Source: Promethearchaeota archaeon (GTDB lineage: Archaea > Asgardarchaeota > Lokiarchaeia > Sigyniarchaeales > SOKP01). Taken from it: a DNA stretch of 64,000 nucleotides. The position numbers and the translations under genes are program-made. Shown here one piece after another: positions 2,773 through 25,900 of this stretch (position 1 is its first letter; every line of letters starts with the position of its first letter). The stretch lies in contig JBHLOJ010000002.1 in the NCBI GenBank assembly GCA_048940605.1, positions 17,742 through 81,741 of the forward strand. Reading direction: 5' to 3'. The notes beneath the pieces were generated by a model. That model did no database searches. It saw only the letters and a program-made list of their open reading frames with translations, and was not told the DNA's origin.

Positions 2773-3023
2773 GATTTGTCCTCCGAGTAATATTTGAAGA
2801 CCTTCATTTTAAATTTTTCTATTAAAGAATATTTATAGTCATGCTAAAATAAAACCTTTAAGGTGAAATGAAATTCATATCTGGCATTAACCTATAGGAT
2901 TAATTCAATTTTTTTAAAAATTGAGTATGGTTAAATCATATGGAATTTCTTAACTAAAAATAAAGATTGGAAAAGACTGTAGTTTTATTTATGATTTAAG
3001 ACTAATTTTTATGTTTTGAATTC

Positions 3024-4724: not shown

Positions 4725-5032
4725 ATTTACTTGATTTTTTTGTCTTAATTATGTGATTTACATTTAAAAAAAGAATATTTAAGTATTAAATAACTTCACA
4801 TTTATTTAAGCTATTTCACAAATTGATATATTAATTTTAAGAAAGATTGAAAGCACCTTAATTTAACTTATTGAATGGATTTTATGATTAAAAAAGATAA
4901 ATCAAAATTCGTAAGATAATAGAAAGATTAATGAAATTTATTTAAACATAATTAATACTATGGAAAAACTATACAATATCCATTCTTTGAATCGCCGCAC
5001 AGAATGAAATAAAAGACAAATCATGTAATATC

Positions 5033-6908: not shown

Positions 6909-9900
6909 TTAACCTACGATTAGTTGTTCTATTACTTCCATTATTCTAGTAGTTTCTTTAGTCAAGTAATCGGCTAAATTTTCAGATATTCTTTCTTTAT
7001 TTAGATACCAGTTAATTTTCCATATAACTCGTTCTAATTTCCACTGAACGCAGTTTAATATGTATTCACTATCTTCTTCCATATCAATCTTAAAGAGTGC
7101 ACTTTCTAACATCTTTGAAGCACAATAGACCTTCCAGCTAAGATATTTACCTGTACAGGAAGAGATTTCTTCTTCAATGAAATCACTTAAGTTAAGTAAA
7201 TCGACCTCTAGATAGGCGATGTCATAAGCCTGTTCGGAACCAGTAGAAGCTCCCATTAAAATCACGATATTATTCCTTATAGCGTGTAGTGTATCTATAA
7301 TATATTCAGTGTGTTCGTCGCTCATATGACAACACTTATTATTACAATACTTATTATGAAAATGCCTATTATAGAGTTCATTCCTAAACTCAACGATTTG
7401 TACAAAAACCTTAGCCATCTTATCATTGTATAAAGTACAGGTGATTTCGCCGTTTTCCACCGATGAGAAAGCTTCAACTAAGTGTTCTTGAGCTTTTGAA
7501 AGCTTCCTATTGAGACATCGACTTTTTCTGCATGAGAAAATCTCATCAACATAAGCCTTTAACTCCTCTATTTGCCAATCAACATACTCATACATATTTC
7601 CTAATGAAATTTCAAAATTCCCAGATATCGAATTTATTAAATTATCGTTAGGACGATCATTATCCCCATCAATTGCCTTAATTTGAACGTTATGAATGCC
7701 TTTATTCAGTATCCATTGATTTAACAAAACAAAATAATATATATCACCATTTTGAGAGCTGTATAAGGGCTTAATAACTTGCCCATTAACTATGAAAGTG
7801 AAAGTATCTATCCCACTGTAATCTGATGCATTTAATGTAAGGTATATATGGTGAATATCCAGTGTAATAATTAAATCAGATAAATTTGGAGGGTCTTTAT
7901 CATCATCTTCAATATTAAACAATATTGAAAATGAATTTGTCTCCTCATCACCATCCCACCCATCATCATCATTATTTTCCACGCTTAAGATAGCTGAATA
8001 TTCACCAAGTTCAAAAATTGGAACTTGATTTACGTCAATTATAAATGTACCCTCAGCATAGGTTTCTGAGAATAGTATACCCTCTTGATCTTCAATAATT
8101 AGTTCTCCTGTAGCTTCACTATTCTCATCAGGGTCACGAATCTTAAATTCTAGAGTACCTGGTTGACCATCTGTACTTTCCCCCTCATGATCTAAAAATA
8201 TTTGAGGCGGTGTAAGATCATCATCTTCAATAATAATCGTTAATCTCTTGGTCTTTCTATAAATCTTGTCATACTTTTCAGTGGAAACGGTGATTTCTGG
8301 ATTTATATATTTAGGAGGGCTATTTACAGGAATTCTTATCTCAATAGGAATCTCTTTAATTTCTATAGGATCTAGTTCAATATCGATCCCTTGACTCACC
8401 AAGTCTATATTTTCTATCAAGAATTGAATATCTTCGGATTCATCTAAGCTAATATGGGTCATAACAGGTTCTTCTATAAGATTTGTGATAGTCAATGAAA
8501 TAGTAGCATTCTCCCCGTTAAACAGTTCACAAATACTTGGTTGTAAGCTTAATTCTATTAAATTAGAATATTGACTAGAGCTTATTTCGAAGACGGTTAC
8601 TTCACTAGGATTTTCTGCTGTTCTTACAAGTTGTTCACTACTCATTACGATCATTTCCATTACTTCAGCATTATTACTCACAACTACCCTTGATTCTTCA
8701 TTTGAATCGTTGATGAATTGCTCGACTTGCTGATTAAAGGATAAAAGACTAAAATCTAGAAATGTATCTATGATTTCTTCGGCGTCTCGTTCAGTATAGT
8801 TATTTTTAATTAGTACTCCCTTAAACTGTTCATAAAGAGTAACATTATTAATGATATCAATTTGAATGGTGGAGATTTCTTGAACGATGCCGTCGAAATC
8901 AATTCCCTCATTATTTATTATTATTTCAGGAGTAAGATTATCCATGTAGTCTTCTAAGTGCGTAATGTATGAGTGATAAAAGTTTGACTGGATTAGGGTA
9001 TAATTCTTTACCGCCTCTGCTTGAATTTTTGCTGCATTATAATTACCAACCATCATTGCATAAGTATACCTTTCGATGGAAATTTTGATGGCTTCAGTCG
9101 CAGTAATAAACAGATTCTGAGCTTCATATACAGCATGTAAATTTCTTAAAGTTTGAGACTCCGATACATTGTTAGGTAAAGGATCAATATAAATTTCCTC
9201 AATTTCAACAACCTCTTCTATATTAGGATCAGGAGGATCTTCAATAATTGATTGAATTAACGCTCTAATTCTAGCTTCTTCACCATCCTCAAGGTCGTTA
9301 TATCTATCCTCTTCATAATCCCAATATATACCTATTGAATCAAGTAATATTGATAAGCCATTTAAGAAATCATCAAGAAGATCATAAACATCAGCAAATA
9401 TATCGACAAGCAACGCACCAATATCAAGAATCAAGGCAGCCCAATTAGCCCATTTCCCAAGGTCGTTCATATTATCAGCTTGATTCCTGTAATATTCTGC
9501 TAATTGATTGCTTTCTTGAATAAAATCCGCATATGAAATTTTTAGATGGGGAATATGGACGAGAAATTGTTGTGTTATTTTAGAATCTGTTTCATCATCT
9601 TGAATCCATACTTGAAATTCTAAATCCCTTTCTGTGGAATAAACTTCTCCAGACTCCTTATCACACCAATCCCATTCATGTAATTGAATTCGACTCCCAT
9701 TGCTCAAATATCTATCATATCCCGGGATGAGATATGGAGTATCTCTATAGGTTAAATCGGTAATGTTAGATACTCCTAAGCTAAATTTTTTATTACTGTT
9801 GGCTGGAATGTCTCCGATGTTTTCAACAACTAACATATATTCTGGATCATCTGTAAAATACCTAGTATACATTATATGAATTGCATTCACTTGTAGACCG

Positions 9901-10967
9901 GTAGGATTATGGACAGTCCCATTTATACGGCATAATTCCGTAGGATTAATCCACCCAGGATCTAATATCTCTTGTTCAATATAGATTTTCAAATTTGATA
10001 TATAGGGTTTTGAGGGATTAATCTGAATTACCTGATAATTAGTTATATACTTTAAATGATCATGAGATAATTTAACTCGGTAATACACCCGTTGATTACT
10101 TAGTATTGTAGAACTAAAATCCGTGTAAAAAAAAGAATGACTTGTTCCTGTTGAAAGAGTTACATTGCCTGTCCTAAAAATATGCCATGTATACCCATCA
10201 GTACTTTTTTCTAGTTCATAAGTTGCGTTATAAGGTTCTGATAGGGTGTATGTATTCAGGTTACTGACAGTAAAATTAATATCATACATCTCATTGGTAC
10301 TTGCCTCAGTTTTATTGATTTCAAAAGAAGAAACCTCTGATATAGGATAGGAGGAAAGCGCAGAGTTAAGGCAAGAATAGTCAGGATCAAGTGCAGATAT
10401 GTGATTATCAGCAGTAATATTTAAAATTAAAGTGTTTGTCATGTGATAATTTTTATGGTACCAATAACCACCACCAAAAGGACTACTATATATAATAAAA
10501 ACTCGAACATAAAGATGACATTCAACTTCAATCTCCTGCCCAGGCACAACATATATCGGTTTCAGTGTATCCACTAAATTGAAACTATGAGGAGAGGATA
10601 TAGGTATCACTGTTGGTACAGCAAGATAAGTAATTGTTAATTCGCATATTTCAATTACCGCACCATATCCGGCATAAATTAAATCAGCTATTGAAGTTTT
10701 CTCAAAGAAATCTTCAACGTCAAAGGAAGATTGCCATGTTACTTCAGTCTGTATTATTTCGGGACTAGGCCATTGGTTGCTTCCAGATAATAATGGATCT
10801 ATTACTTCAGATTTATCATTTTCAGTTTCAACTTTGAAAAAAGCAGAATTTGGATCAACTGCGATTACCAATTGATTACTACATAATACAATAGCACAAA
10901 TCAAAATTGATCTTATCTTTTGGTGTTTTTTCATATAGATTTCACTACCATTTATATTGTAGATCAC
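6909..10967 (-). CDS. Large secreted acidic protein (1352 aa in the track; more likely 1341 aa from ATG 10934), function unknown
   Basis: From the internal Met at 10934 the sequence MKKHQKIRSILICAIVLCSNQLVIAV reads as a classic signal peptide. The protein is beta-rich and Asp/Glu/Asn-rich with N-x-S/T sequons. It has Ig-like segments bounded by DDDLTPP and DDDKDPP, and a helical, Cys-containing C-terminal region (CRKSRC, CNNKCC). Confidence 0.75.
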   Translation of the reverse strand: MIYNINGSEIYMKKHQKIRSILICAIVLCSNQLVIAVDPNSAFFKVETENDKSEVIDPLLSGSNQWPSPEIIQTEVTWQSSFDVEDFFEKTSIADLIYAGYGAVIEICELTITYLAVPTVIPISSPHSFNLVDTLKPIYVVPGQEIEVECHLYVRVFIIYSSPFGGGYWYHKNYHMTNTLILNITADNHISALDPDYSCLNSALSSYPISEVSSFEINKTEASTNEMYDINFTVSNLNTYTLSEPYNATYELEKSTDGYTWHIFRTGNVTLSTGTSHSFFYTDFSSTILSNQRVYYRVKLSHDHLKYITNYQVIQINPSKPYISNLKIYIEQEILDPGWINPTELCRINGTVHNPTGLQVNAIHIMYTRYFTDDPEYMLVVENIGDIPANSNKKFSLGVSNITDLTYRDTPYLIPGYDRYLSNGSRIQLHEWDWCDKESGEVYSTERDLEFQVWIQDDETDSKITQQFLVHIPHLKISYADFIQESNQLAEYYRNQADNMNDLGKWANWAALILDIGALLVDIFADVYDLLDDFLNGLSILLDSIGIYWDYEEDRYNDLEDGEEARIRALIQSIIEDPPDPNIEEVVEIEEIYIDPLPNNVSESQTLRNLHAVYEAQNLFITATEAIKISIERYTYAMMVGNYNAAKIQAEAVKNYTLIQSNFYHSYITHLEDYMDNLTPEIIINNEGIDFDGIVQEISTIQIDIINNVTLYEQFKGVLIKNNYTERDAEEIIDTFLDFSLLSFNQQVEQFINDSNEESRVVVSNNAEVMEMIVMSSEQLVRTAENPSEVTVFEISSSQYSNLIELSLQPSICELFNGENATISLTITNLIEEPVMTHISLDESEDIQFLIENIDLVSQGIDIELDPIEIKEIPIEIRIPVNSPPKYINPEITVSTEKYDKIYRKTKRLTIIIEDDDLTPPQIFLDHEGESTDGQPGTLEFKIRDPDENSEATGELIIEDQEGILFSETYAEGTFIIDVNQVPIFELGEYSAILSVENNDDDGWDGDEETNSFSILFNIEDDDKDPPNLSDLIITLDIHHIYLTLNASDYSGIDTFTFIVNGQVIKPLYSSQNGDIYYFVLLNQWILNKGIHNVQIKAIDGDNDRPNDNLINSISGNFEISLGNMYEYVDWQIEELKAYVDEIFSCRKSRCLNRKLSKAQEHLVEAFSSVENGEITCTLYNDKMAKVFVQIVEFRNELYNRHFHNKYCNNKCCHMSDEHTEYIIDTLHAIRNNIVILMGASTGSEQAYDIAYLEVDLLNLSDFIEEEISSCTGKYLSWKVYCASKMLESALFKIDMEEDSEYILNCVQWKLERVIWKINWYLNKERISENLADYLTKETTRIMEVIEQLIVG

Positions 10968-11290: not shown

Positions 11291-12841
11291 TTACTGGTTT
11301 GAAATTCCTTTTAAGACTACCATGAAATCATAATTGTCGCGATCTTGAGCTTTTTTTTCATATAGAATTTCTTCATCATCGTAATATTCTATCCCTGTTG
11401 ATTCTCTTTTAGGATAGAAATGAGCCCCGTCCTCTTTAGAAAATACTTTTTTAACATCTTTCGTTTGTTTGATAACAATTAATATACAATCCTTCATAAG
11501 ACCATCCTCATTGGAAAGCTTAACATCCACTATTTCAAAGAACTTAGTGAACTTTCTTACATGATTTCTAATTATCTCATATAATTCTTTTTTTTTATTC
11601 TCGATATCGTCTAAGCCAAAGATCTTCCTTGGAATTTTATCTGATATACCAATAAGAAGCACACCTCCCATTGAGTTAGCAAATGCACAAACATGCTTAC
11701 AAAATTTTAATTTACTTTCCTTCTGAACCTTTCTCTCATTAGACTTCCACCATTCAAATGTCTGCTTAAAATCCCAATAATCGTGCTCAGTTTTTTCAAG
11801 AACATTTGTAATAAATTTTCTCCAGAAGGTATCATTATGAATTTCTCGAAACCACCTATCATATATTCGAGTTACCCTTTTCGATTCTTTCCTGCTTAAT
11901 ATTGAAAAACTTAATTTTTTCGAATTTTTCAATTCATTTTTAAATCCTAATTTCAAATCCTTAAACGAGGATAAAGCATCTAAGACTTTTTGAGAATTTT
12001 CTTTATTTATTGTCTGATGGTATAGAATAAAATTCAAATTTTCTATATAGGTATCTATAATTGTAATTATATCAAAGGAACCTTTTGATTTAAATAAAAC
12101 ATAAATTTTATACAAGTCAAATTTAAATTGTGCACTTTTTAATATATCAAACAAATCCATATAAAGGATTTGACGCAGATCTAGGATAATCTTTTCAAAA
12201 TCCACTTTGCTTAAGTAATTTATATCATTTTTAATTGATTTAATCGTGTTCCTCATCGTTTCATCCAATTTAAAGACCTCTGATTTAATAATATTTTCTA
12301 CAGACCAGCGAAATCGTTTAATGTATTCTTCTTCTTGTCCAAGGACAAAAAACATACTGTGGAGGATTAATATACTACCTATTATGATAAAAATAACCTG
12401 ATTATAAAGACTAGATTCAAGCATATCCAAAACAAAAGTATAACGATATAACAAAAAATCAGCAAGATAACATATTGGAAACAATGTTATTAAAATAAAC
12501 CTTAAAAAATTGAATACACTTCTATTTTTCATATATGTATCTGCTTTTTTGTACCATTTAGTTAAAGTCTCTTGAAATTCATTGTCATTAGTTACCACGC
12601 CGTTTTTCAGAAGATTTGAGAGAGGTTTCAAAAAATTTCTATGATGATCCCAACTATTGACTTTCCAAGAATAATAATTTCTTGAGACTAAAGTGAAAAT
12701 CAATAAAATTAAAACTAGAGACCATAGCATAAAATATGCATCAATAGTAGTAAAAATACTGGCATCAATTGCGAAATAGCTAAGAGACAAAATAAATGAA
12801 ATTATTGAAGTATAAAGATAAAAACTACTAATATTAAACAC
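11291..12841 (-). CDS. Membrane protein (about 4 TM helices) with a C-terminal AlbA_2/Schlafen-like (divergent AAA_4 N-terminal type) domain
   Basis: GTG start at 12841. The N-terminal third has hydrophobic helices (SIISFILSLSYFAI, MLWSLVLILLIFTLV, FILITLFPICYLADFLL, VIFIIIGSILILHSMFFVL). The C-terminus DYWDFKQTF...KHVCAFANSMGGVLLIGISDK (core at about 11643-11690) matches the E-x-EFK ... AFANxxGGxLxIGV signature of the AlbA_2 family, recalled from memory. Confidence 0.7.
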   Translation of the reverse strand: MFNISSFYLYTSIISFILSLSYFAIDASIFTTIDAYFMLWSLVLILLIFTLVSRNYYSWKVNSWDHHRNFLKPLSNLLKNGVVTNDNEFQETLTKWYKKADTYMKNRSVFNFLRFILITLFPICYLADFLLYRYTFVLDMLESSLYNQVIFIIIGSILILHSMFFVLGQEEEYIKRFRWSVENIIKSEVFKLDETMRNTIKSIKNDINYLSKVDFEKIILDLRQILYMDLFDILKSAQFKFDLYKIYVLFKSKGSFDIITIIDTYIENLNFILYHQTINKENSQKVLDALSSFKDLKLGFKNELKNSKKLSFSILSRKESKRVTRIYDRWFREIHNDTFWRKFITNVLEKTEHDYWDFKQTFEWWKSNERKVQKESKLKFCKHVCAFANSMGGVLLIGISDKIPRKIFGLDDIENKKKELYEIIRNHVRKFTKFFEIVDVKLSNEDGLMKDCILIVIKQTKDVKKVFSKEDGAHFYPKRESTGIEYYDDEEILYEKKAQDRDNYDFMVVLKGISNQ

Positions 12842-13178
12842 AGACTTAGCAAAAGTGAAGAATTTGTCAAGATTTATATAGGAATCAGAGAGAGTTATAT
12901 AACTTCACCCCTTAATAATCTGTGTGTATTTTTATATAAAATCTTTTAGTAATATTAAATAAATAGAAGGGAGATATTTAAAGATAAAATTTGTTAATTT
13001 CGGAAATTTTGCTAAATTCAATCCTTAACCTCAATCTTATTTCTATAAATCTATAAGGAAACAACTTGTGATTTTCTGTAATACGAAATTTACAATTTTA
13101 AGCTTATTATTATTTAGGAGAGAGCTGAATTACTAATTGATCGTACTGAATGTATTTTGTCTGGTTGTTTTGGTTGTC

Positions 13179-13427
13179 TTAGTAGTTCCAATTATAATCA
13201 AACGGGATTTGTTTCCCGTGTTCAAGAATCCGCTGGCACGGTGTTGGTTCTTCTTGACCTGGAAATTTAGCCATAATCAATTCATTATTTTGGTATTCGA
13301 AATGTCTTAATCCGTCCAATTCTTTTTTAGGAGAGTAGACATTAATATATTCGTTATCAAGACTTTTTTTGATATTTTCTAATCCTGTGATAATTTTATT
13401 AAGTAGCTTCAGATCATAAATATTCAC
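13179..13427 (-). CDS. Small hypothetical protein, 82 aa
   Basis: The ORF is isolated in an otherwise non-coding stretch and its composition is plausible for a protein. No motif recognised. Confidence 0.35.
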   Translation of the reverse strand: MNIYDLKLLNKIITGLENIKKSLDNEYINVYSPKKELDGLRHFEYQNNELIMAKFPGQEEPTPCQRILEHGKQIPFDYNWNY

Positions 13428-13558
13428 TCATTTAATCTTGTTTTTTATTTCCTTAGATTTCTAAGAGGTCTACATCAAATAAAGTTAAAAAATTTTCTTT
13501 TTTTTTTTTTTGTCTCTCTTTATCGTTTTTCAACATATCCTTTATTATTATAGTGTAT

Positions 13559-13583
13559 AAAAGGAGACTCCCCCAGCAAGACC
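13559..13583 (+). repeat. Second copy of the intergenic motif AAAAGGAGACTCC..CCAGCAA.ACC
   Basis: AAAAGGAGACTCCCCCAGCAAGACC here compares with AAAAGGAGACTCCTACCAGCAAAACC at 22437-22462, about 22-23 of 25-26 positions identical. Both copies are intergenic, and each lies ~10-25 nt downstream of an A/T-rich TATA-like stretch. A weaker relative, GATGACTCCTCCCAACAGGAAAGG, lies at about 11110-11133. Confidence 0.4.
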
Positions 13584-13747
13584 AAATCATAGTGTCATCT
13601 TCATTATGAAGGAGATTCTGTAAAGAAAGCACTCAAAAGTAATAAAGAAATGAAAGAGAATTAAACCACCAATAATTTATATTTAATAATTCTTTGAAAG
13701 ATTATAGATCAAATTGATCTGTAATGAATTTGTAAATTGATGAAATC

Positions 13748-14491
13748 ATGAAGTATATTAAAGAATTTTATAAGAAGACTTTAGAGAGATTTACAGTAAA
13801 TCTAAGCTACGACTCGGATTTAGTTGGAATCGAAATTAATACAATAAAACCATTAGCTGATGAAATTAATAAATTCTATCCTGAAAATCCGATTTTAGGT
13901 TTATTGAAGAGACGTCCTTCACAAGTAAATATTGGAACCTTAACTTTCAAAGATGAAAAAAATATTAATCTAGTAGAAATTGGTCAAGATTTTCTCAGTT
14001 TTACCTTTAATCAGTATGATAAATGGGATACAGAACTATCTAAGATCATACATGTTTTTAAAGCTTTAACAAAATCAGTAGAAATCCCTAATATAACCAA
14101 GATTGTTCTAACTTATACAGATGTTTTTCGCATACCCACTGAAAAATTTGAATATAATAATTTTTTTACAATGCCGAACTTTGATAATGATTTTGGTTGG
14201 AACGTAAAATTTCATGATATATATTTGGGTTTCGTTCCAACTGAAGAAAACTTAGAATCTGAGAAAAGAAAAATCACATTTAGGTTAAGATCTCGAGGAA
14301 TACAAGATATTTATTATGTATTTGGACTTGAAACAGTAGGAAGCATTGATAATTTTATAATAACTCCAGACCCTAACAAATTAAAGGATCATTTAGATCA
14401 ATGTCATGCGCAAATTGAGGATCATTTTATCAATATCTTAACTGACCATTATAGAGGTATAATTGGTCTCGAAATTGAGGAATATGAATGA
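13748..14491 (+). CDS. Hypothetical protein, 247 aa, first gene of a three-gene operon; resembles the sporadically distributed TIGR04255 family (from memory)
   Basis: ATG start. The layout ...FYPENP...LSFTFNQYDKWDTE...ITKIVLTYTDVFRIP... recalls the TIGR04255 pattern (Y-x-x-W ... riGLRYiN-like strand). The stop at 14489-14491 overlaps an SD-like GAGGT (14490-14494), 8 nt before the next ATG. Confidence 0.6.
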   Translation: MKYIKEFYKKTLERFTVNLSYDSDLVGIEINTIKPLADEINKFYPENPILGLLKRRPSQVNIGTLTFKDEKNINLVEIGQDFLSFTFNQYDKWDTELSKIIHVFKALTKSVEIPNITKIVLTYTDVFRIPTEKFEYNNFFTMPNFDNDFGWNVKFHDIYLGFVPTEENLESEKRKITFRLRSRGIQDIYYVFGLETVGSIDNFIITPDPNKLKDHLDQCHAQIEDHFINILTDHYRGIIGLEIEEYE

Positions 14492-14502
14492 GGTTAACAT
14501 AA

Positions 14503-15120
14503 ATGAATTCTTCAATTATCGATCAGTTCTTAAGTTCCAGTGAAATAAAAGAATTTGAAGATAGCATAATGAGGTGGTTAGTTGAGAATTTCAGCCCCCA
14601 AAAAGAAGGATTTGATTCTCAATCTGATACCAATATACTAAAAAATGAATTATCATATGTAGGTCAATTAGAAAACATTTTTTTAATCTTTATTGAGTCT
14701 GTAAGTGAAAAATATTCTACTGAATCTGCTAAACATCTGTATAATAAAACTGTGAAGACTATATTAAGTAATATTAAAATTTTTGAAATAAAGGATAATA
14801 TAAATTTGGAAGATATTACTAAATCGTTTTTAAGTGCATTTGACACTCTCAAACTCGATGATCCAGGGTTCTTTGGAAACCAGATCTCTTATCACCAGTT
14901 TCTCCCTGAAACATTTGATTATCTCAGCAATCAAATTGCTTTAGAGTTAATTTCTTCAGATTGGGTAGTTCCTAGTTTTTGGAGGGATGAAGTATTTAAA
15001 AAGATATTAGATATAGACGAGACTCGACAATTAAAGTTCGCAATAAAATCAATGATTTTATTCATAGAGCTAATCAAAGAACAGAAAAAAAGATTAGATG
15101 ATTTAAAAGTTAAGATCTAA
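14503..15120 (+). CDS. Hypothetical all-alpha protein, 205 aa, second gene of the operon
   Basis: Preceded by GAGGT at the optimal spacing. Its stop TAA (15118-15120) directly abuts the next ATG (15121). No family recognised. Confidence 0.6.
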   Translation: MNSSIIDQFLSSSEIKEFEDSIMRWLVENFSPQKEGFDSQSDTNILKNELSYVGQLENIFLIFIESVSEKYSTESAKHLYNKTVKTILSNIKIFEIKDNINLEDITKSFLSAFDTLKLDDPGFFGNQISYHQFLPETFDYLSNQIALELISSDWVVPSFWRDEVFKKILDIDETRQLKFAIKSMILFIELIKEQKKRLDDLKVKI

Positions 15121-16290
15121 ATGAAAAGATTGGAAATGAACCAAACGATATATAGGTTTAATTTAGAAAAGGGAGAACCTCCGATAACTCAAGGAGATGT
15201 TTTTTCTAATCTACCTTATTTCAGTAATGCTTTTTTGTTACGATCATCCCCTAATAACCTTGATGTTTTCAAAAATGAAAATCAAGAAATATGGAGCGAA
15301 GTAATCCAAAATAACTCAAAAATTCAATTTGAAGGATTTTACTATCCAAAATGGGGTATAATTGCAAGTCAAGACTGTGATATTAAACCAAAAATGGATT
15401 TAATATTTTATCCACTGGAAAAGACTAATAAATTAATTAATGCAGAAGACATAATTCTTGATATTAATCGCAAAATTAAAAACACAACCAGAAGATTATA
15501 TCTCCCTGAATTAACTTTTCAGAATGAACAAATTTATGGACCTTTTGAAATAATTTTTCATAATCCATTTACTATTCCTTATGAACTAGTGGAGAAAAAT
15601 TATGATAAATGTTGGAGAGCAAGACTTATAGAATCAGCAAAAAAAATATTTATAGGAAAGTTATCTCAATTTTTCACAAGATTACCAATTGAAGAATTTA
15701 TTTTCTTAGAAAATCGAGAAATTACAAAATATCTTCGGCAAGATTGGAAAAAATTTTGGAAAGAAAAGACTCCTGAACAGTTTAACAGTAGAGTAAAAAA
15801 GATAGGTGAAATCATAGATACATTACAGTTTGTTAAGAGAAAAGAAGATATTTCAAAGATTTTTTATTATGATGTTGAATTAATAGAGAAAATTAGAAAA
15901 ATTTTAAAAGATATTAATTGGTTTCAACAAGCAGAGAATTTATATAATCAGTGTAACCAAATATTAAATTCTTATGAAGATAGACCAAGCGAAACATCTA
16001 ATCTATTTGAAATTCTTGTTGAAGTTCTTATTATAAATAAAGAGTCATTTCAAAATAAGTTCTATAACTTTTATCAAACGAATAGGGAGGGAATAATGAA
16101 AATGAGACAGAAAAATAAGTACGTAGAAGGCATTTTACCGTCTAATTTGAATGATCGGGAAGAAAAATTTAGAGAGTATGCTAACAAAATCTTTAAAGCT
16201 AAGGAAGCTTTTGAAAAAATCCCAGATTTTTTAATAAATTATGAAGAGCTTTTCGAGAAAATCGAAAAGACAAGAAAATTGGAAAATTAA
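15121..16290 (+). CDS. Hypothetical protein, 389 aa, third gene of the operon
   Basis: Start abuts the previous stop, which indicates translational coupling. The N-terminal ~190 aa carry conserved-looking elements (ITQGDVF, GIIASQDCDI, LSQFFTRLPIEEF). The C-terminal half is helical and Lys/Glu-rich. No family recognised. Confidence 0.6.
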   Translation: MKRLEMNQTIYRFNLEKGEPPITQGDVFSNLPYFSNAFLLRSSPNNLDVFKNENQEIWSEVIQNNSKIQFEGFYYPKWGIIASQDCDIKPKMDLIFYPLEKTNKLINAEDIILDINRKIKNTTRRLYLPELTFQNEQIYGPFEIIFHNPFTIPYELVEKNYDKCWRARLIESAKKIFIGKLSQFFTRLPIEEFIFLENREITKYLRQDWKKFWKEKTPEQFNSRVKKIGEIIDTLQFVKRKEDISKIFYYDVELIEKIRKILKDINWFQQAENLYNQCNQILNSYEDRPSETSNLFEILVEVLIINKESFQNKFYNFYQTNREGIMKMRQKNKYVEGILPSNLNDREEKFREYANKIFKAKEAFEKIPDFLINYEELFEKIEKTRKLEN

Positions 16291-16320
16291 AGATTATTCT
16301 TCTTAATAATATCATATAAT

Positions 16321-16330
16321 AAAAAAAAAA
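16321..16330 (-). terminator. Oligo-T tract (T10 on the minus strand) 21-30 nt after the stop of ORF 16351..18618
   Basis: A10 on the + strand, read directly. The arrangement is the same as at 6889 and 20384. Confidence 0.35.
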
Positions 16331-16350
16331 GATATTTATTTATTATTATT

Positions 16351-18618
16351 TCAGGGAATAAAAGGGATTATAATCATTGATCTTTGCCTTATACTAAACT
16401 CTTCATTATCATCTGGAAAAAATGTATATTCCACCCAAATATCTTGACCCTGTAGCTCCAAAACTTCTATAAGAGAGTTAGTCTGTTGAAATGTATTTCC
16501 ATAACCATAGCCATAATTATGAGTTCTATATGTTTCATCGATAAAATCATGAAATGCAGACCATACCGTGCCTTCAGCACAATCTAATAGTGATATTTCA
16601 GCGTCATCAAAAAAACGAAAATTTGAAGTGTACACGACAAAGCAGTTATAGTTAAAGTTAACGTTTTCAAATCCAATATCTTGATCTAGATCCTCATATG
16701 AGACTGTATCTGTCCTGTAATCATAAAGAGTTTCAGGAGGTAACGGCATCAAGATTAATGATCTTTCCAATATGGTGAGTTTATCGTTAGTTACAGGATC
16801 ATAATCATATCCTCGTCCCATAAATCTTAATTCTACTACTAGATCAGTATTATCTAAAGAAAGTTTATCTGCGATTATCATAGTCCCTCTCATTATCATA
16901 TCACCTTGATAAGCGGGAAATTCCCATTGCCTTATAGTATGATCAAAAAGTCCGGAAGTATCTGCATCTGCAAAACGTACCCATCCATTACTGTGGACTC
17001 CATGCAAACTCCCTGGATCATCGGTAACTTGAAATGAAGCAGTATATATAGCTAGATACTCTCCCGTAAGATCATCAATACGAAGATCTTCGCGTATTGT
17101 ATTATCCTGCCATTCTGCAGATTCTGTGCTGCTGATATATGGACAATCTGGTGCTAATGGAATTGCGATTATTGATCTCTGTATTAGGGTAAATGTGACA
17201 CCATCGAAAAAATCTAGTTTGGCTCTTACTCCTCCGGCACCAAGTGTTACTCTATCTGCTACCACTATTGTACCATACATATCCTGGGAAATATCCTCAA
17301 AAAAGCGTTTCGTCCGAGCGATTTCTCCAGCATCAGTTACTAAAGTTACCCAACCATAACCCTCGACCATACTAAAAGCATAAAAATTAGCGGTATATAT
17401 AACAAGATACTCACCTGGAGTGCCAACGGAATTGATGGCAACATCTTCATCTTCCCAACTAAATGGAATATCATCCATTGTCCAATCAACCTCCTCTGAA
17501 CTTTGAGCGTAAAGGAATCCAGAAGGAGTTGTCTCAGTAGAATAACTGAGATAGAGTTGGTCAAATTCTAGAAGAAATACTCCTGTAGTTATTACTGTGG
17601 TTGAGAATCGTAATTTCACTTCATCATTTACACTGATATAAGTAGGACTTAAGCTAAAGCTGTCAATGATCCAATTTGTTCCTGGATTAGATTCTACCGT
17701 ATTCCAAGAGGTTGTATCGTAGTTCCATATTTGCATAGTGGTAGTAACATCGCTCGTTGCACGATAATCATAGTAGAGTGCATCAATTGAAGTCATATCA
17801 ACATCTGTAACATCCCACATCACTGTCCAATCATGTTTATAATTACCGTATTGTTGCTTTACATATACTTTCACATAGACGGTATTAATATCAACCCAAC
17901 CAGGATCATAAAATTCCATCCACGGGTATACATCAGCTACTTTGGCTTGTAGCCAAAATCCATCTAACTGGGATTGACTAAGCGATAATCCTGATTTTGT
18001 GTATGATTTCCATTGATAGCTAGTCCCTGTGGGAGTCCATGAGCCTGACGTACTCGCACTGGTATCTATATCTACGTAGGTCGATGTGGTAGATGCTTGC
18101 TCTTTTATATACGCCCAATAGACCAGTTTTGTTACGTATTCACCAGGGGCAAGTGAAAGCGAAGTAAACTTCCATTTATCACATTTACCTACACTATTTT
18201 CCCTAATATTTCCTCCATCTCCTTCTATAGGAAATTCATCAAGTTTACTCCAATGAGGGGGTCCATCTGCATTATTCCATTGAGTAAGAATATCTGCATT
18301 GGATTCTGAGCCTTGAATTCCAGGCTTGATATATCCTTTATAATATTCACCGCTAGTGGATCCATAACTCCCAGAGTTGACACTCATGGTATCTACGCCA
18401 TCTTCCAATAGATTGCCTGTATCACTTCCTGAACCATAAGGGCTAAAATTAAAGTCAGCCCATTGGGTAGGGGCTTCCTTAAGTCCAACATCACTCTCAT
18501 TTGGTATAGTCTCTAATTTTGGTTTAGAGATTGCAGGTATTGAAGATAAAAAAGTCAATGTTAACACTAGAAAAAGGATAATACTCAAATAGTTCCATTT
18601 TTTAACCTGTAATTTCAT
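16351..18618 (-). CDS. Secreted protein, 755 aa: signal peptide, two beta-sandwich-like domains, then three tandem ~125-138 aa repeats
   Basis: Signal peptide MKLQVKKWNYLSIILFLVLTLTFLSSIPAIS. The three C-terminal repeats (about 17146-17538, 16732-17145, 16354-16731) each contain GEYL(V/A)IYTA(N/S)F-like strands. Each ends in QRSIIAIPL, ERSLILMPL or QRSMIIIPF. Both the N-terminal domains and the repeat type recur in the giant ORF (see findings). Confidence 0.8.
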   Translation of the reverse strand: MKLQVKKWNYLSIILFLVLTLTFLSSIPAISKPKLETIPNESDVGLKEAPTQWADFNFSPYGSGSDTGNLLEDGVDTMSVNSGSYGSTSGEYYKGYIKPGIQGSESNADILTQWNNADGPPHWSKLDEFPIEGDGGNIRENSVGKCDKWKFTSLSLAPGEYVTKLVYWAYIKEQASTTSTYVDIDTSASTSGSWTPTGTSYQWKSYTKSGLSLSQSQLDGFWLQAKVADVYPWMEFYDPGWVDINTVYVKVYVKQQYGNYKHDWTVMWDVTDVDMTSIDALYYDYRATSDVTTTMQIWNYDTTSWNTVESNPGTNWIIDSFSLSPTYISVNDEVKLRFSTTVITTGVFLLEFDQLYLSYSTETTPSGFLYAQSSEEVDWTMDDIPFSWEDEDVAINSVGTPGEYLVIYTANFYAFSMVEGYGWVTLVTDAGEIARTKRFFEDISQDMYGTIVVADRVTLGAGGVRAKLDFFDGVTFTLIQRSIIAIPLAPDCPYISSTESAEWQDNTIREDLRIDDLTGEYLAIYTASFQVTDDPGSLHGVHSNGWVRFADADTSGLFDHTIRQWEFPAYQGDMIMRGTMIIADKLSLDNTDLVVELRFMGRGYDYDPVTNDKLTILERSLILMPLPPETLYDYRTDTVSYEDLDQDIGFENVNFNYNCFVVYTSNFRFFDDAEISLLDCAEGTVWSAFHDFIDETYRTHNYGYGYGNTFQQTNSLIEVLELQGQDIWVEYTFFPDDNEEFSIRQRSMIIIPFIP

Positions 18619-19158: not shown

Positions 19159-20361
19159 GTGATCGGAAAATTGGTAGTCAAAAATCTAGGTGTTAATTTA
19201 GACAGTTTTAGACTAACTTGTGATGAGTGCAACTCTGAAGAATTTGCTGAAACCATTGAGGGATATGTATGTAGGGATTGTGGCATGGTACTCACAGTTG
19301 CAAAACTCCAGTTTGATGTTCCTTTTAAACAAGAAACAAATCAACACTCAAAAAGGTTAGGATTTACTCAAATTGGTACAAAAAGAGAGAGAAAAACGTC
19401 ACCACACTCTTGGCTGCTTTATCGACTTAATACGCAGAATCTAATTGTAGAAAGTGAACGTGAAGCTGGAATCAAAGCCGAAAAAAAAATATCAAAAATT
19501 CTTGAGAGTTTAAAGTTTAATAATTCATTTACTGAGGGTATATGTAAGAAATTTAAGGAAATATGGCCAAAACTAAAGGTTGGTTCAATATACCGGAATC
19601 CTGAGAAATTAGTGACGGTAATAATGTATTATTATCTTAGACTTCAAAATATTGTAATCTACAAAGATGAGTTGGTAGAGGTTTCCGAAATTTCAAGAGA
19701 GGAGTTCAGAAATTTTCAGACACAGGTTTCACAGTATTTTCCTGAATATAAGTTAAGGGAACGAAGAGAATTAATATCCCAACAACTTCTGCGTATCCGA
19801 GAACATTTCAATCTTGATATGGATTTCTATATGTTATCAAAGAATATCTTGAATAAGCTCTGGAGGTACATAAATAATACAAAAGATGATGTAATCGCAG
19901 GGCTTTGTGCTTCAATTGCAGTGTTATGTGCTGATAATGAACCAGTTAGGGTCCATAATATCTGCGAATTTCTCAATATCAGAATGAGTACAATTCAGCT
20001 TCAAGTGAAAAAAAAGATCTTTAATAAATTTAAAATCAATGGATTTACAACTCTCGTAAAATCTTCTGGATTATTGAAAACATTTTTAGAAAAAATAGGA
20101 ATATCTATGAGTCAAGGAATGATTTTTTTGAATCTGAATAATAATTTTAGGATATTTAATCCTCTTAATGAGCATTATTTCTTTGAATTAGTAACTGAAG
20201 ATCCAAAGAGTGTAATCTTTGGATATATAAAAATAGGAAAAATCAAGGATAATATTGAAGAATATGGGATAATGATGAATGTAAAGATCAACCTAACTCT
20301 CGGAAAGTTATACCCAAGTAAGGACCCTCCTAATAGAATTAATAGAATGGAAGTTCCATAA
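19159..20361 (+). CDS. tfb: Transcription factor B (TFIIB homologue), a divergent paralogue with a C-terminal extension
   Basis: GTG start. An N-terminal zinc ribbon C-x2-C-x13-C-x2-C (CDECNSEEFAETIEGYVCRDCGMV) is followed by two cyclin-fold-like helical repeats (around KLVTVIMYYYLRLQN and VIAGLCASIAVLCAD). At 400 aa it is about 70-100 aa longer than typical TFBs as I recall them. Confidence 0.8.
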   Translation: MIGKLVVKNLGVNLDSFRLTCDECNSEEFAETIEGYVCRDCGMVLTVAKLQFDVPFKQETNQHSKRLGFTQIGTKRERKTSPHSWLLYRLNTQNLIVESEREAGIKAEKKISKILESLKFNNSFTEGICKKFKEIWPKLKVGSIYRNPEKLVTVIMYYYLRLQNIVIYKDELVEVSEISREEFRNFQTQVSQYFPEYKLRERRELISQQLLRIREHFNLDMDFYMLSKNILNKLWRYINNTKDDVIAGLCASIAVLCADNEPVRVHNICEFLNIRMSTIQLQVKKKIFNKFKINGFTTLVKSSGLLKTFLEKIGISMSQGMIFLNLNNNFRIFNPLNEHYFFELVTEDPKSVIFGYIKIGKIKDNIEEYGIMMNVKINLTLGKLYPSKDPPNRINRMEVP

Positions 20362-20409: not shown

Positions 20410-22215
20410 TTAAGGTTTAATGATAACGTTATTTCCTTCAATAACGAATACGATCTTGTTAAATTGCATACTACTTGAAACGTAAAACTCCAAGTCAATG
20501 AATTCAGAAATGCCATCGTTATGATCTGCCCCATATAAATCTATGCGTTTATCATCACTAAGCCATAATTTACTCCAAACTTGCCCTAATTCACTATGAA
20601 TAGCTGAAATAAGGTACAATTTTTTCATTTCTCCATTAGGTAATTCGCCCCAAAGCTCAACTTTATCTATATGGGATATAGTATAATGATGTTCTGTTAA
20701 ACGCAGGTGATATCGATTATCTATTGGAAAAGGATCTGAAAGCAAAGTATGAGCATAAACTACATCAATACCCTCTGGATTGTGAATATCCAGTAATCCT
20801 TCATCTATATACGTTTCACCATTAAATACACTTAAGATAGGACAACCTCCACCACCTCCACCACCTCCATTATTTACATACACAGATCTTGTCGTTTGTT
20901 TATAATTTCCCCGAGCATCATAAGCCCTACAAAAAAGTGTATATGGTCCATCACTCACACCATTAGTATTCCATACCCAGCTCCAGCCATCGCTTCCATC
21001 AGTATCTTCGTGCCAGAAGAATGGATTTTCACCTAGCCAAAATTTTACTTTATCTACACGGTAATTATCTGAGGCTGAGGCTCTACATGTAACAGTTCCA
21101 CTGACAATATAAGATGGAGAAGTAATGGATACTGTTGGGTTCTCTAAATCACATGCTCCATAAGCATTTACGAACCCATGTCCATGTTCGTTGTAATTAT
21201 ATCTAAACCCTTCTAAGTCTCGGAAAATATCTTTATCAGCTGTTTTACATAATATGCTTTTAATCTGTGATGGACTAAGGTCTCTCTTCCCATCTTGAAG
21301 ATCTTGTGAAATTATAAGAGCACAAACACCAGCTACATGAGGAGTTGCACAAGAAGTTCCATCAAAATCAGCTTCTATGGTATTTGAAAGATCTGTGGTA
21401 GGTATATTATCCGCAGGAGCAACCAGATCAATATGTGAGCCAAATAACCATGGAAATGGAAGGAACGCCCAATATTCACCATCCCCATAATTACTTCCAG
21501 AATCTGATCCAAAATCAACCCATCGAATAACCTTTTCTCCAGATTGTTGAACACCACCAACAGCAATAACATCTGGATGGCATGCAGGAGACAAAACTTT
21601 ATTTTTGTTATTGTTACCTGTAGCAGCAACAAGCACTATCCCGTTGGTATATGCTGAATGTATAACCTGATGAAAAATCCAAGCATCTTCATTTTTAAAA
21701 GTAAAACTCATTGAAATGACATCAATATTATGACTTATAGCCCATGATACAGCATATTGAATTTGCCAAGGATTAAGGTTTAGACCATCACCATCAATAC
21801 GATACATATAAAGATCTGCTTCTGGAGCAACACCTATAATTCCCTTTTCATTATCTTCGGCAGCTATTACTCCTGAACACATAGTACCATGACCATTAAT
21901 ATCTTCAGGATAGCTATCTTCCCCATAATTATCATATCCTCCTTTGTATCTATCATCTAAATCATAATGATTCATATCTATACCTGTATCAATTACCAAC
22001 ACTTTTACTCCTTGACCCGCAGGATTACCTGGAATCACATCTGTTGCATCTTCAAAACCGCCCCACACCCGTTCAGCGTCTATATAATCAACACCCCATC
22101 CAAGAATATCCTCTCCCTCGCACCTTCCGACTGGAGTAAAACTAAGGGGGATTGATAAAGCAATAAATAGACATAGATTTAGCAAAATTACTTTTGAAAA
22201 GAATTTTTTATTCAT
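20410..22215 (-). CDS. Secreted subtilisin-like serine protease (peptidase S8) with a poly-Gly linker and a C-terminal beta-rich domain
   Basis: Signal peptide MNKKFFSKVILLNLCLFIALSI. The catalytic triad motifs are VLVIDTGID (Asp codon 21988-21990), NGHGTMCSG (His codon 21889-21891) and GTSCATPHVAG (Ser codon 21352-21354). A G7 linker is encoded at 20846-20868. Confidence 0.9.
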   Translation of the reverse strand: MNKKFFSKVILLNLCLFIALSIPLSFTPVGRCEGEDILGWGVDYIDAERVWGGFEDATDVIPGNPAGQGVKVLVIDTGIDMNHYDLDDRYKGGYDNYGEDSYPEDINGHGTMCSGVIAAEDNEKGIIGVAPEADLYMYRIDGDGLNLNPWQIQYAVSWAISHNIDVISMSFTFKNEDAWIFHQVIHSAYTNGIVLVAATGNNNKNKVLSPACHPDVIAVGGVQQSGEKVIRWVDFGSDSGSNYGDGEYWAFLPFPWLFGSHIDLVAPADNIPTTDLSNTIEADFDGTSCATPHVAGVCALIISQDLQDGKRDLSPSQIKSILCKTADKDIFRDLEGFRYNYNEHGHGFVNAYGACDLENPTVSITSPSYIVSGTVTCRASASDNYRVDKVKFWLGENPFFWHEDTDGSDGWSWVWNTNGVSDGPYTLFCRAYDARGNYKQTTRSVYVNNGGGGGGGGCPILSVFNGETYIDEGLLDIHNPEGIDVVYAHTLLSDPFPIDNRYHLRLTEHHYTISHIDKVELWGELPNGEMKKLYLISAIHSELGQVWSKLWLSDDKRIDLYGADHNDGISEFIDLEFYVSSSMQFNKIVFVIEGNNVIIKP

Positions 22216-22901: not shown

Positions 22902-25900
22902 TTATGTATTTTTTTCTAGGATCTTTGATTTTTTTGTAAGAATCGAAATCAACATAAGTAAAACTCCTAGAATTATGATTGGTGTATATCCAGGAATATT
23001 CTGTGGAGAATCTGGAGGCGTGGTATCAATCAAATTCACCGTAATAATATTTACATCTTCTACATTTCCCGCATTATCGATAGAATAGAAAGAAATTTTC
23101 CATTCTCCAAAGTTATAATCAGTTAAATTAAAAGGTTGACTAAATGTAAACCATTCCGAATCATTGATCTGATACATGATAATTGATATTCCAGATCCAC
23201 TGTTATCGTCTGCGATTAATGAAAACAAAGTGGATTTATTTACATTAAATAAATCACTGTGAGGATCAAAGGAGATCGTTGTAGAAGGTTTTTGAAGATC
23301 AAAAATTTCAATAGTAAATAGAGATCCCATATTATCATTTATTCCAATATTTCCAACAGTATCATTTGCAATAAACATAATTGAGAAACTATCACCATAA
23401 TTCATAGTAGAAATATCTAAGTTATAGACCCAGTCATCAGCTTCCATGTAGATCATTGAGTGATTTATTGGAATACCTGTTGAATTTTCGCATAAATATA
23501 CCCATAAAATTTCAGAAGAATTGAAGATAGTACATTTAATTTCAAGATTTAGATGATAATACTCTGGGATGAAAGGATTAATAAACAAGTTAGAAACTTC
23601 AAATAAAATAGATGGTGCTTCTGTATCTTTTAGAATTGTTATATTTTTATGTCCAATGTGTCCTAAGGTGTCATTTGCAAAGAAGTAGATTTGTATATAT
23701 CCATCAGCCTTATTATTCCAACCTGTTTGATTTATCGTACCTACTAAATGGTTAATTGTGAGATTTGTAATTCCATTATCTATTGAATACCAGATAGTAT
23801 CTAGGTTACCCTCTATTATCGATAACTCAAACTCAGGGGCTGTAAAACTAAATATTTCGTCTAACTCGGGTGATTTAATTTCAATAATTGGAGCTAGAAT
23901 ATCCTTCCTTATTAATACCTGATCATGGCCTATATTTCCTACACTATCATTGATAAAAAATGCAATTACAACGCTACCATTCATAATTAGATCCCAAGCC
24001 TCTTGATCTATCGTTCCATTTGAAGTGAATGTATAGTTTTTGGCTCCTAAAGAATACCAAGTTAAATTTATATGTGGATCATTGAAAAATACTTCAAACT
24101 CAGGAGCATCTGATCCGAAAAGATCAAACTCATAAGGGCTTAAAATCTCAATTTCAGGAGCAATTATATCTTTATAGACTTTAACTTCACTAAAACCAAT
24201 ATTTCCTGCCTTATCACAAGCATAAAACTTAATGAAAACTGTTCCATTGGGTAAGTTGTTCCATGAATTAAAAGCAAATGTACCATTTCCAAAAAAAGTT
24301 GTATTTGTTTGACCATTATCAAAAGTATACCATGATTTATCGAAATTAGATTCATTTATAAAGATCTCGTAATTTGGAGGAGAAATTCCAAAAATTTCAT
24401 TATTTTTTGGGGTATAAATGATGATGTTCGGTGAAATTATGTCTTTAAGGAGTATTATCTCATCAAATCCTATATGTCCAAGTGAATCATTTGCATAGAA
24501 GCGAACTACAACTGTCCCATTTCCAAATTCATCCCATAAATTCTGATCAATTTGATCATTAAAATCTGTAAATGTGTGATTAACAGATCCTCCAATTAAA
24601 CTGTACCAAGTAATGTTTAGATATAATCCGGTTACTGAAACTCTAAAATTTGGTGCTAATTTTCCAAAGAGTTGATTTTCTGTTGGTAAAATGATCGAGA
24701 TCTGAGGGGGTGTAGGATCATCTCCATCATCCCATATTGGATATAAGTCATATTTAGGGGAAGGTATACCACTAATTTGATATGCAATGTCCCCAATTCC
24801 GTCGTCATTTAAGTCGTTTCCACTATAATCATCCCAATAATTCCCAATTGAACCATTGTCCCAACTATTTATCCCTCCACTATTAAATCCATGTTGTCCA
24901 TTATTTATAAAAGAATTTTTGTATATAAGGTTAAGATAATCTTGACCGGATGGAGTTCCAATACTCAGTCCACGATCAGTGTTGTTTATGATAATATTAT
25001 TCATGAAAATGTTAATATATGGAGAAGGTCTCTCTTCAGTATAAACACCAATTCCATCAGAATTGTTATAAACTATATTACTAATAACTAAAGAATTAAA
25101 TATAAATAAGTCCATTCCTTCGTAAGTGTGGAAGGAAACTCGATTTCTTTCAATAATACAATCATAACCCCCATCAATAAAAATCCCTCTTTCATTATTA
25201 TTAATGTAATTTCCTGTGATTTCTGTTCTACTCCCTAATATCCCAAGTGAAATACCCCTTTGACCAGAATTTGAGATATTGTTATATGTTATTACATTGT
25301 CTGTACAATATTGAAAAAAACCGATCCCATCATCTGTGTTATCTGTAATATCATTTTCAGAAATTATATTATAATCACAATACATGTAAAAAGATATCCC
25401 ATTTCCACTGTGATTAAAGATCTCATTATTTAATATCTGATTCCATTCACAATTTTCCCATAAGTAGATGCCTTGATACTGATTATCATGAATTATGTTA
25501 TGGATTATTATCCCATTCTGTGTATTATTAAGCCAAATACCTCTTTTAACACCGTTAAATAGCTCACAATTTTGAATTATGAAATGGACATTAGAATTAA
25601 GAACCGTTATGCAGCTATCGTTTGTATATCCATCAATAATAACATTTTCTATAATATAAGGATCAAGAACAGTTCCAGAGCCTCTACACCAAGGATTTTC
25701 TGATTCAATTTTGGCCCAATTGTAGTTAGGATCAGAATTATCAATATATATCGGAACACCACTAAGATTCCACATTCTTATGTAATTAATATCCTTTAGA
25801 ACAACTAATTCTTGATAAGATACTCGTCCTAAAGTATCGTTTGCGTAAAATTTGATTGAAATCGTACCATTTTCACATGAGTCCCATGCTCCTTGATCTA

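Follow-up and report, generated by a model that had tools for sequence, protein, structure and literature searches.

We analyzed a three-gene cassette in a metagenome-assembled genome (MAG) of a Promethearchaeota archaeon (Asgard). The DNA examined, here called the window, is 64,000 nt long with a G+C content of ~30% across its whole length, and all coordinates refer to it. Genomic and structural observations lead us to favour, tentatively and with a little less than even confidence, a reading in which the cassette is a tripartite toxin-antitoxin (TA) or abortive-infection-like module and an accessory, horizontally shuffled module of Asgard-type archaea. Its features are as follows, all on the + strand.

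13748-14491, +: gene 1, 247 aa, TIGR04255 family; proposed accessory component (sensor or regulator)
14490-14494, +: Shine-Dalgarno (SD)-like GAGGT, overlapping the gene 1 stop, 8 nt (taacataa) before the gene 2 ATG
14503-15120, +: gene 2, 205 aa, acidic (isoelectric point, pI, 4.8), undescribed family; proposed neutralizer or adaptor of gene 3
15121-16290, +: gene 3, 389 aa, undescribed family
15121-15735, +: gene 3 N-terminal domain (N-domain), residues 1-205; predicted MazF/Kid/PemK-like fold, proposed effector
15190-15198, +: codons for Q24-G25-D26 (caa gga gat; 'GDVF' motif), invariant in 59/59 sequences
15367-15381, +: codons for S83-Q84-D85-C86-D87 (agt caa gac tgt gat; 'SQDCDI' motif); Q84 and C86 invariant, D87 at least 90% conserved
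15736-16290, +: gene 3 C-terminal all-helical extension, residues ~206-389, found in the long-form clade only

The original prediction described a tightly coupled operon, and a direct reading of the DNA agrees with it: there are three open reading frames (ORFs), the GAGGT element lies 8 nt ahead of gene 2, and the gene 2 TAA (15118-15120) abuts the gene 3 ATG (15121-15123). The gene 1 TGA (14489-14491) sits within the string TGAGGT. G-rich patches occur at the gene 1/gene 2 junction of other loci as well, with TGAGGT in locus L001, GAGAGGGG in L005 and AAGGG in L003. Intergenic gaps in the cassette run from about -26 to +30 nt, reaching ~100 nt in one locus, and the gaps between genes 2 and 3 in orthologues from -4 to +30 nt. 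Gene spacing alone would suggest stoichiometric co-expression of the three genes.

Co-occurrence of the trio in other genomes, a check proposed with the original prediction, was found. The order TIGR04255, middle gene, gene 3 is kept in ~24 distinct loci, and the flanking genes differ between loci. No assignment to a metabolic pathway, the outcome named beforehand as contradicting a candidate defence role, emerged. The product of gene 3 shares 100% identity with a protein from a 'Promethearchaeota archaeon' MAG, which makes the host an Asgard archaeon. Gene 3 has ~20 close homologues (44-69% identity), and each of those examined (L001, L003/L004/L007, L005/L006, L038 and L039) is preceded by a TIGR04255 gene of 248 aa followed by a middle gene of ~205 aa. 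The C-terminal extension of gene 3 is missing from L008 and from all short forms. Short-form loci were taken from metagenomes and MAGs and scanned with hidden Markov models (HMMs) built for this analysis; the TIGR04255 gene and then the middle gene stand upstream of the gene 3 homologue wherever there is sufficient upstream DNA. The source MAGs include some labelled Promethearchaeota, Heimdallarchaeota (L036) and Odinarchaeota (L039), and the gene 3 family is confined to Asgard-type archaeal sequences. An exhaustive profile search of 1.84 billion representative proteins found 83 clusters of this family, and the long form was present in 3/185,579 species-representative genomes. Pairwise identities computed over 18 loci are correlated among the three proteins (r = 0.90-0.94). 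Gene 2 diverges fastest: its mean identity is 0.26, whereas gene 1 has 0.35 and the gene 3 N-domain 0.39.

Variants of the cassette indicate which genes belong most closely together. Genes 2 and 3 are fused in L012 into a protein of 616 aa, P0045, an arrangement seen in one lineage only; gene 1 remains separate there. Residues 152-227 of P0045 match gene 2 by BLASTP (E 7e-9), its N-terminal 235 residues match the gene 2 HMM at 5e-50, and residues 232-607 match the gene 3 profile. One clade has the pair but lacks gene 1: at L035, gene 3 is directly adjoined by a gene 2-like ORF of 78 aa, with no detectable TIGR04255 gene. Because of the P0045 fusion and the L035 pair that lacks gene 1, genes 2 and 3 look like a core pair to which gene 1 is an add-on.

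Broken copies of the cassette were also encountered. Gene 3 is split by frame changes in L024 and L025, L029 holds a solitary C-terminal remnant of gene 3 without genes 1 or 2, and gene 1 of L034, on a 5x long-read contig, is frameshifted across three frames. These copies could reflect decay or sequencing/assembly error.

The original prediction recognized neither gene 2 nor gene 3, and our searches likewise returned no Pfam, NCBIfam or PADLOC match for either; both represent undescribed families. For gene 3, profile and single-protein searches gave no significant match in these three collections or among PDB sequences. Its N-terminal ~205 residues also exist as stand-alone proteins of ~210-230 aa, which account for many of the 83 clusters. 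In a 59-sequence alignment of the N-domain, Q24, G25, D26, P32, Q84 and C86 are invariant, and four further positions (Y11, D87, P129 and R187) show conservation of at least 90%. The GDVF and SQDCDI elements, picked out as conserved-looking in the window protein, are therefore the signature of the family.

Modelling of the N-domain by AlphaFold2 with the 59-sequence alignment yielded a mean predicted local distance difference test score (pLDDT) of 92.9 and a predicted template modelling score of 0.86. The distant short forms were needed for this result, as a full-length model made with a 16-sequence alignment had a pLDDT below 50 for residues 1-192. Foldseek comparison of the N-domain model with the PDB returned, among its top 50 matches, solely MazF, Kid, MoxT, YdcE and related mRNA-interferase toxins. 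The best match had an E-value of 3.1e-3, with probabilities of up to 1.00 and template modelling (TM) scores of 0.50-0.63 when normalized by the ~110-aa targets. Most of the top matches in BFVD, a collection of viral predicted structures, are annotated 'PemK-like'. The predicted model has the SH3-like β-barrel and C-terminal helix of the CcdB/MazF superfamily, and its elements run in the order β 26-41, helix 54-64, β 70-81, β 93-101, helix 111-120, four short strands and helix 171-182. As read from the DSSP string, without superposition, this order appears compatible with a MazF topology carrying two helical insertions. The C-terminal extension is a helical bundle in the full-length model (pLDDT ~70-96) with no structural match beyond generic helical bundles. 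The ideas that it is a duplicated gene 2, or that there is kinship among the four modules, were rejected by hhalign.

Iterative HMM searching placed the middle genes from 21 loci in a single homologous family. They share the motif P-E-T-F..ALQW..W-I-D; T137 is invariant, and conservation at W154 and F159 is at least 90%. Family scans that included 20 homologues gave no significant match to Pfam, NCBIfam or PADLOC, and a profile search gave none in the PDB. The protein is acidic, with a pI of 4.5-5.2, in 16 of the 19 loci compared. This acidity and the fast evolution of gene 2 are both typical of antitoxins.

Gene 1 had been likened to the uncharacterized, sporadically distributed TIGR04255 family, and it is indeed a member. 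The protein scores 44.1 bits against the NCBIfam model (curated cutoff 30; E 2.1e-11) and aligns to profile positions 53-249 of 252. Orthologues from L008, L009 and L010 align near end-to-end (positions 2-252), and the scores of orthologues from L001, L003, L008, L009 and L010 range from 38.6 to 83.6 bits. The TIGR04255 gene is always first in the cassette, and within the family the proteins associated with the trio make up a divergent branch from archaea. Y123 and H220 are invariant, and conservation is at least 90% at D125, D157, K175, R179 and E195. Searches with 18 homologues gave no Pfam match, a profile search gave no PDB sequence match, and an internal duplication was tested and rejected. 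No paper on TIGR04255 or its synonyms was found in the literature searched.

A tblastn search of plasmids with gene 1 of L010 retrieved a single bacterial TIGR04255 gene, located in a plasmid prophage of Pantoea sp. Lij88 (NZ_CP118267.1, 170558-172406; L033, 5983-7831). This gene heads a different three-gene set, encoding 266, 189 and 149 aa, of which the latter two are unrelated hypothetical proteins. The set forms an insertion in a P22-like prophage, with the lysis cassette on one side and the small terminase gene on the other. Searching plasmids, phages and E. coli genomes with the Pantoea genes returned nothing further. TIGR04255 can thus pair with other partners, on the showing of this single Pantoea anecdote. 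The Pantoea 189-aa protein weakly matches the PADLOC candidate PDC-M32A (E 4e-4).

Two features were noted in the DNA directly upstream of gene 1.

13676-13683, +: TTTATATT, a putative TATA-like element of archaeal type, 65-72 nt ahead of gene 1
13706-13720: AGATCAA-A-TTGATCT, a perfect palindrome lying between this element and the start codon of gene 1

The TATA-like element is the probable single promoter of the cassette. Among 21 orthologous loci, eight (L003, L009, L016-L020 and L024) carry a related motif, AAWTTTATTG, at -45 to -62 of gene 1, compared to 3.3% of background 100-nt windows; these eight loci are mutually related, so that part of the signal is shared ancestry. The motif is probably a promoter element of the BRE (B recognition element)/TATA type. 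The palindrome was considered as a conserved operator and rejected, as it is missing upstream of orthologous cassettes and is of low significance. No tandem repeat array was found in 12800-16500, Rfam gave no above-chance match, and a search for flanking direct or inverted repeats that could mark mobile-element ends of the window copy returned AT-rich noise only.

The original prediction placed the cassette in a defence setting, among restriction-modification (RM)-like, AlbA_2 and MNT genes. The AlbA_2 and RM-like assignments hold (E 2.5e-14 and 2e-14, respectively), while the proposed MNT gene, an 82-aa ORF, matches nothing. The genes in question are these.

1-2808, -: partial ORF, 936 aa, Type IIG restriction endonuclease/methyltransferase (REase/MTase)-like; PADLOC mad2 2.6e-16, REase_MTase_IIG 2e-14
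11291-12841, -: AlbA_2 protein, 516 aa, with a C-terminal SLFN_AlbA_2 domain (PF04326)
13179-13427 and 13453-13632, -: small ORFs of 82 and 59 aa that separate the AlbA_2 gene from the cassette; no Pfam/PADLOC match

Recognized defence or mobile-element genes are present in 8 of the 14 neighbourhoods with usable flanks, a figure that is a tally and not a statistical test. To this extent the defence setting stands, and the cassette may have a defence role. The eight are as follows.

Window: AlbA_2/Schlafen-type gene, divergently adjacent; the partial Type IIG RM-like ORF; a weak PLD/DpdK-like gene
L005: adjacent 1306-aa MmeI-type RM enzyme
L008: 999-aa N6_Mtase/Eco57I/MmeI-type gene
L012: two Piwi (Argonaute) genes directly beside the fusion gene (features 337-2187, 2403-5410 and 7313-8187), on an Asgard-type MAG contig
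L016: TPR-TIR protein directly upstream
L021: N6_N4 DNA methylase
L026: D5_N/DUF5906 (D5-type) primase
L036: PIN/DUF433 pairs and a ResIII/DEAD-MZB helicase

A further candidate, L008:4137-5069, looked PIWI-like by eye and was dropped, having no Pfam support. The 516-aa AlbA_2 protein has several hydrophobic N-terminal segments by eye and no PADLOC match. The cassette of the window is surrounded by large proteins, all encoded on the - strand (6909-10967, 16351-18618, 20410-22215 and 22902-27458). At least three have a signal-peptide-like hydrophobic start, those of 1352, 755 and 1518 aa lack Pfam domains where tested, and one is a subtilase with a Big_7 domain. The 400-aa protein at 19159-20361 (+) carries a zinc-ribbon-like motif, CxxC...CxxC, in its N-terminal part and to the eye resembles TFIIB; Pfam gave no match for it, and PADLOC only a weak one to CARF (E 4.5e-3). 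From 31297 to 63999 (+) a single frame, that of a giant gene, stays open for more than 10,901 codons and continues past the window end; two 5000-aa pieces of it have no PDB sequence relatives.

We propose the following working model for the cassette. Gene 3 would be the effector, acting through its ~205-residue MazF/Kid/PemK-fold domain, with a site built around Q24-G25-D26 and Q84-x-C86(-D87) that would be unlike that of MazF. Most probably it would stop growth by acting on RNA; the alternative would be a CcdB-style protein poison. Gene 2, which is acidic, helical-looking, fast-evolving and translated just before gene 3, would keep gene 3 inactive by binding it directly. The TIGR04255 protein of gene 1 would be a third component that senses the trigger, or that regulates or stabilizes the gene 2-gene 3 pair. 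Virus infection, or loss of the cassette, would lift the block and release the effector. Toxicity, the RNA target, neutralization by gene 2, the role of gene 1 and the antiviral function are thus what we infer from the data above; for a gene 2-gene 3 complex, the P0045 fusion and the correlated divergence of the proteins offer indirect support only.

Comparison with known systems shows where the cassette resembles them and where it departs. It would work most like MazEF, PemIK and Kis-Kid, which it resembles in the predicted fold of gene 3, a β-barrel with a C-terminal helix, and in having an acidic, faster-evolving partner just upstream, whose stop codon abuts or overlaps the start codon of the next gene. 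As in type II TA systems in general, the partner gene is adjacent, co-oriented and translationally coupled. In contrast to MazF, with its ~110 aa, the gene 3 domain spans ~205 aa, twice that length, and contains helical insertions; its family conserves Q-G-D and Q-x-C(-D) rather than Arg and Thr. The catalytic residues of E. coli MazF are Arg29 and Thr52, which have equivalents in Kid. Gene 2, at ~200 aa, differs from MazE and PemI in lacking a match to the Pfam DNA-binding families AbrB, ribbon-helix-helix (RHH) and helix-turn-helix (HTH). The cassette also has a third gene, TIGR04255, leading the operon, which MazEF and PemIK do not, and the window clade adds a 180-aa helical extension after the toxin-like domain.

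Toxins of the ToxIN/AbiQ type III systems are RNases that have a Kid/MazF-like fold with a divergent active site, act in abortive infection and are neutralized by a repetitive RNA encoded upstream. They set a precedent for combining a Kid-like fold with another active site, but the cassette has a protein gene upstream, with no tandem repeats or RNA family. A type III RNA-antitoxin arrangement was therefore excluded. Toxin-antitoxin-chaperone (TAC) systems have a two-gene core and a third, SecB-like chaperone component that comes last in the operon. The cassette is similar in being a three-gene operon with a two-gene core and a modular third component; here that component is TIGR04255, not a SecB-like chaperone, and is encoded first, not last. 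CapRel(SJ46) is a single-chain fused TA in which the attached neutralizing domain doubles as the trigger sensor. The P0045 fusion recalls this architecture, although the folds and families are unrelated and the fusion is found in one lineage.

Several results weigh against a toxin-antitoxin or abortive-infection-like role. Foldseek gave marginal E-values, 3e-3 at best. None of the 59 gene 3 family members matches the toxin family PF02452 at E ≤0.1, and the window protein does not match it at E ≤1, whereas the sequence of E. coli MazF, run as a positive control, matched at 5.9e-24; gene 3 is accordingly not a member of PF02452 by sequence. Aligning the gene 3 domain by hhalign to a 5-sequence MazF/Kid alignment gave a probability of 0.4%. 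Because the sequence and profile searches and hhalign were negative, the link to MazF holds at the level of the fold only. No invariant gene 3 column is Arg or Thr, and the sole highly conserved Arg, R187, lies near the C-terminus; with MazF-type Arg/Thr not among the invariant columns, RNase activity is not transferable from MazF. The N-domain is near-neutral and not consistently basic (pI 5.2-8.7). No DNA-binding family (HTH, RHH or AbrB) was found among 20 homologues of gene 2 or 18 of gene 1, so that classical type II autoregulation by a DNA-binding antitoxin is unsupported, and the palindrome that might have served it is not conserved. About 6 of the 14 neighbourhoods are metabolic, housekeeping or of unknown character, and in these the defence setting of the original prediction is absent; such flanks include AFOR, radical SAM and PFL genes at L003/L007, CDC48, LonB and NAC at L035, and histones at L038. 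No copy of the cassette was found on IMG/VR viral contigs with long- and short-form patterns, nor in plasmids and phages by tblastn with a short-form gene 3 (P0112). PADLOC-DB v2.0.0 gave no match at E ≤1 for the window trio, and PADLOC gave none at E ≤0.1 for seven trio proteins of L009, L010 and L021.

These points leave room for other explanations. Gene 3 might be a toxin and gene 2 its antidote, with the role of the cassette being selfish addiction, or the stabilization of genomic islands or integrated elements. Variable flanks and a patchy distribution would suit such a role, as would the D5-type primase by L026 and the PIN TA pairs around L036, and the remnant or broken copies (L029, L024, L025 and L034) suggest turnover. 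Yet these copies may be assembly errors, the window copy has neither flanking repeats nor an adjoining integrase, no copy turned up on viral contigs, plasmids or phages in the searches made, and the frequent RM, Argonaute and TIR neighbours suit defence islands at least equally well. We consider addiction unlikely, though not negligibly so. The roles within the trio could also be distributed differently, with TIGR04255 as the catalytic or effector subunit, gene 2 as a scaffold and the MazF-fold domain of gene 3 as a sensor that binds nucleic acid or a ligand, all in one obligate complex. A pocket or active site could be built from the conserved polar residues of gene 1, no invariant column of the gene 3 domain is an Arg or Thr of the MazF kind, and TIGR04255 leads a different three-gene set in the bacterium Pantoea. 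However, the L035 pair without TIGR04255 and the gene 2-gene 3 fusion argue that genes 2 and 3 are self-sufficient, and gene 1 matches no enzymatic family; we regard this assignment of roles as rather improbable.

A lineage-specific cellular complex with no role in conflict, for example in RNA processing or stress regulation, could account for the copies among housekeeping and metabolic genes (L003/L007, L035 and L038) and for the missing PADLOC match. It is harder to reconcile with a family of great rarity whose distribution is patchy even among Asgard genomes. The wholly changed flanks between loci, the fast evolution of gene 2 and the variable architecture (short, long or fused, with gene 1 sometimes lost) are hallmarks of accessory conflict systems, and we hold a purely cellular complex to be improbable. 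That the three genes are chance open frames, or unrelated neighbours, is refuted by the homologues with invariant motifs, the order kept in ~24 loci and the correlated divergence; the AT-rich composition also makes long chance ORFs unlikely, and we give this explanation virtually no weight. A tripartite toxin-antitoxin or abortive-infection-like module is the reading we retain. A more far-reaching form of it is possible but would, in our estimate, more probably prove wrong than right: the cassette would be an Asgard-specific immune/toxin system, gene 3 would found a new MazF/CcdB-fold branch with a Cys-containing site (Q-G-D + Q-x-C) rather than Arg/Thr, and TIGR04255 would be a modular trigger-sensing or regulatory subunit for differing two-gene effector pairs in archaea and bacteria (the Pantoea prophage).

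The MazF/PemK-type fold predicted for the gene 3 domain, the apparent gene 2-gene 3 core pair and the confinement to Asgard-type archaea are new relative to the original prediction. Published surveys of Asgard defence, PMC11291487 among them, catalogue systems already known from bacteria; that paper does not mention 'toxin', 'MazF' or 'PemK', and the libraries searched contain no model of the cassette. If the reading favoured here is true, the cassette would be a new three-component toxin/immune module from the closest prokaryotic relatives of eukaryotes. Gene 3 would then represent a new branch of the MazF/CcdB fold, greatly enlarged and conserving a different chemistry, for which D26, Q84 and C86, together with the partners gene 2 and gene 1, make a short list of testable candidates. 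The cassette would also provide the first functional context for TIGR04255, a widespread orphan family.

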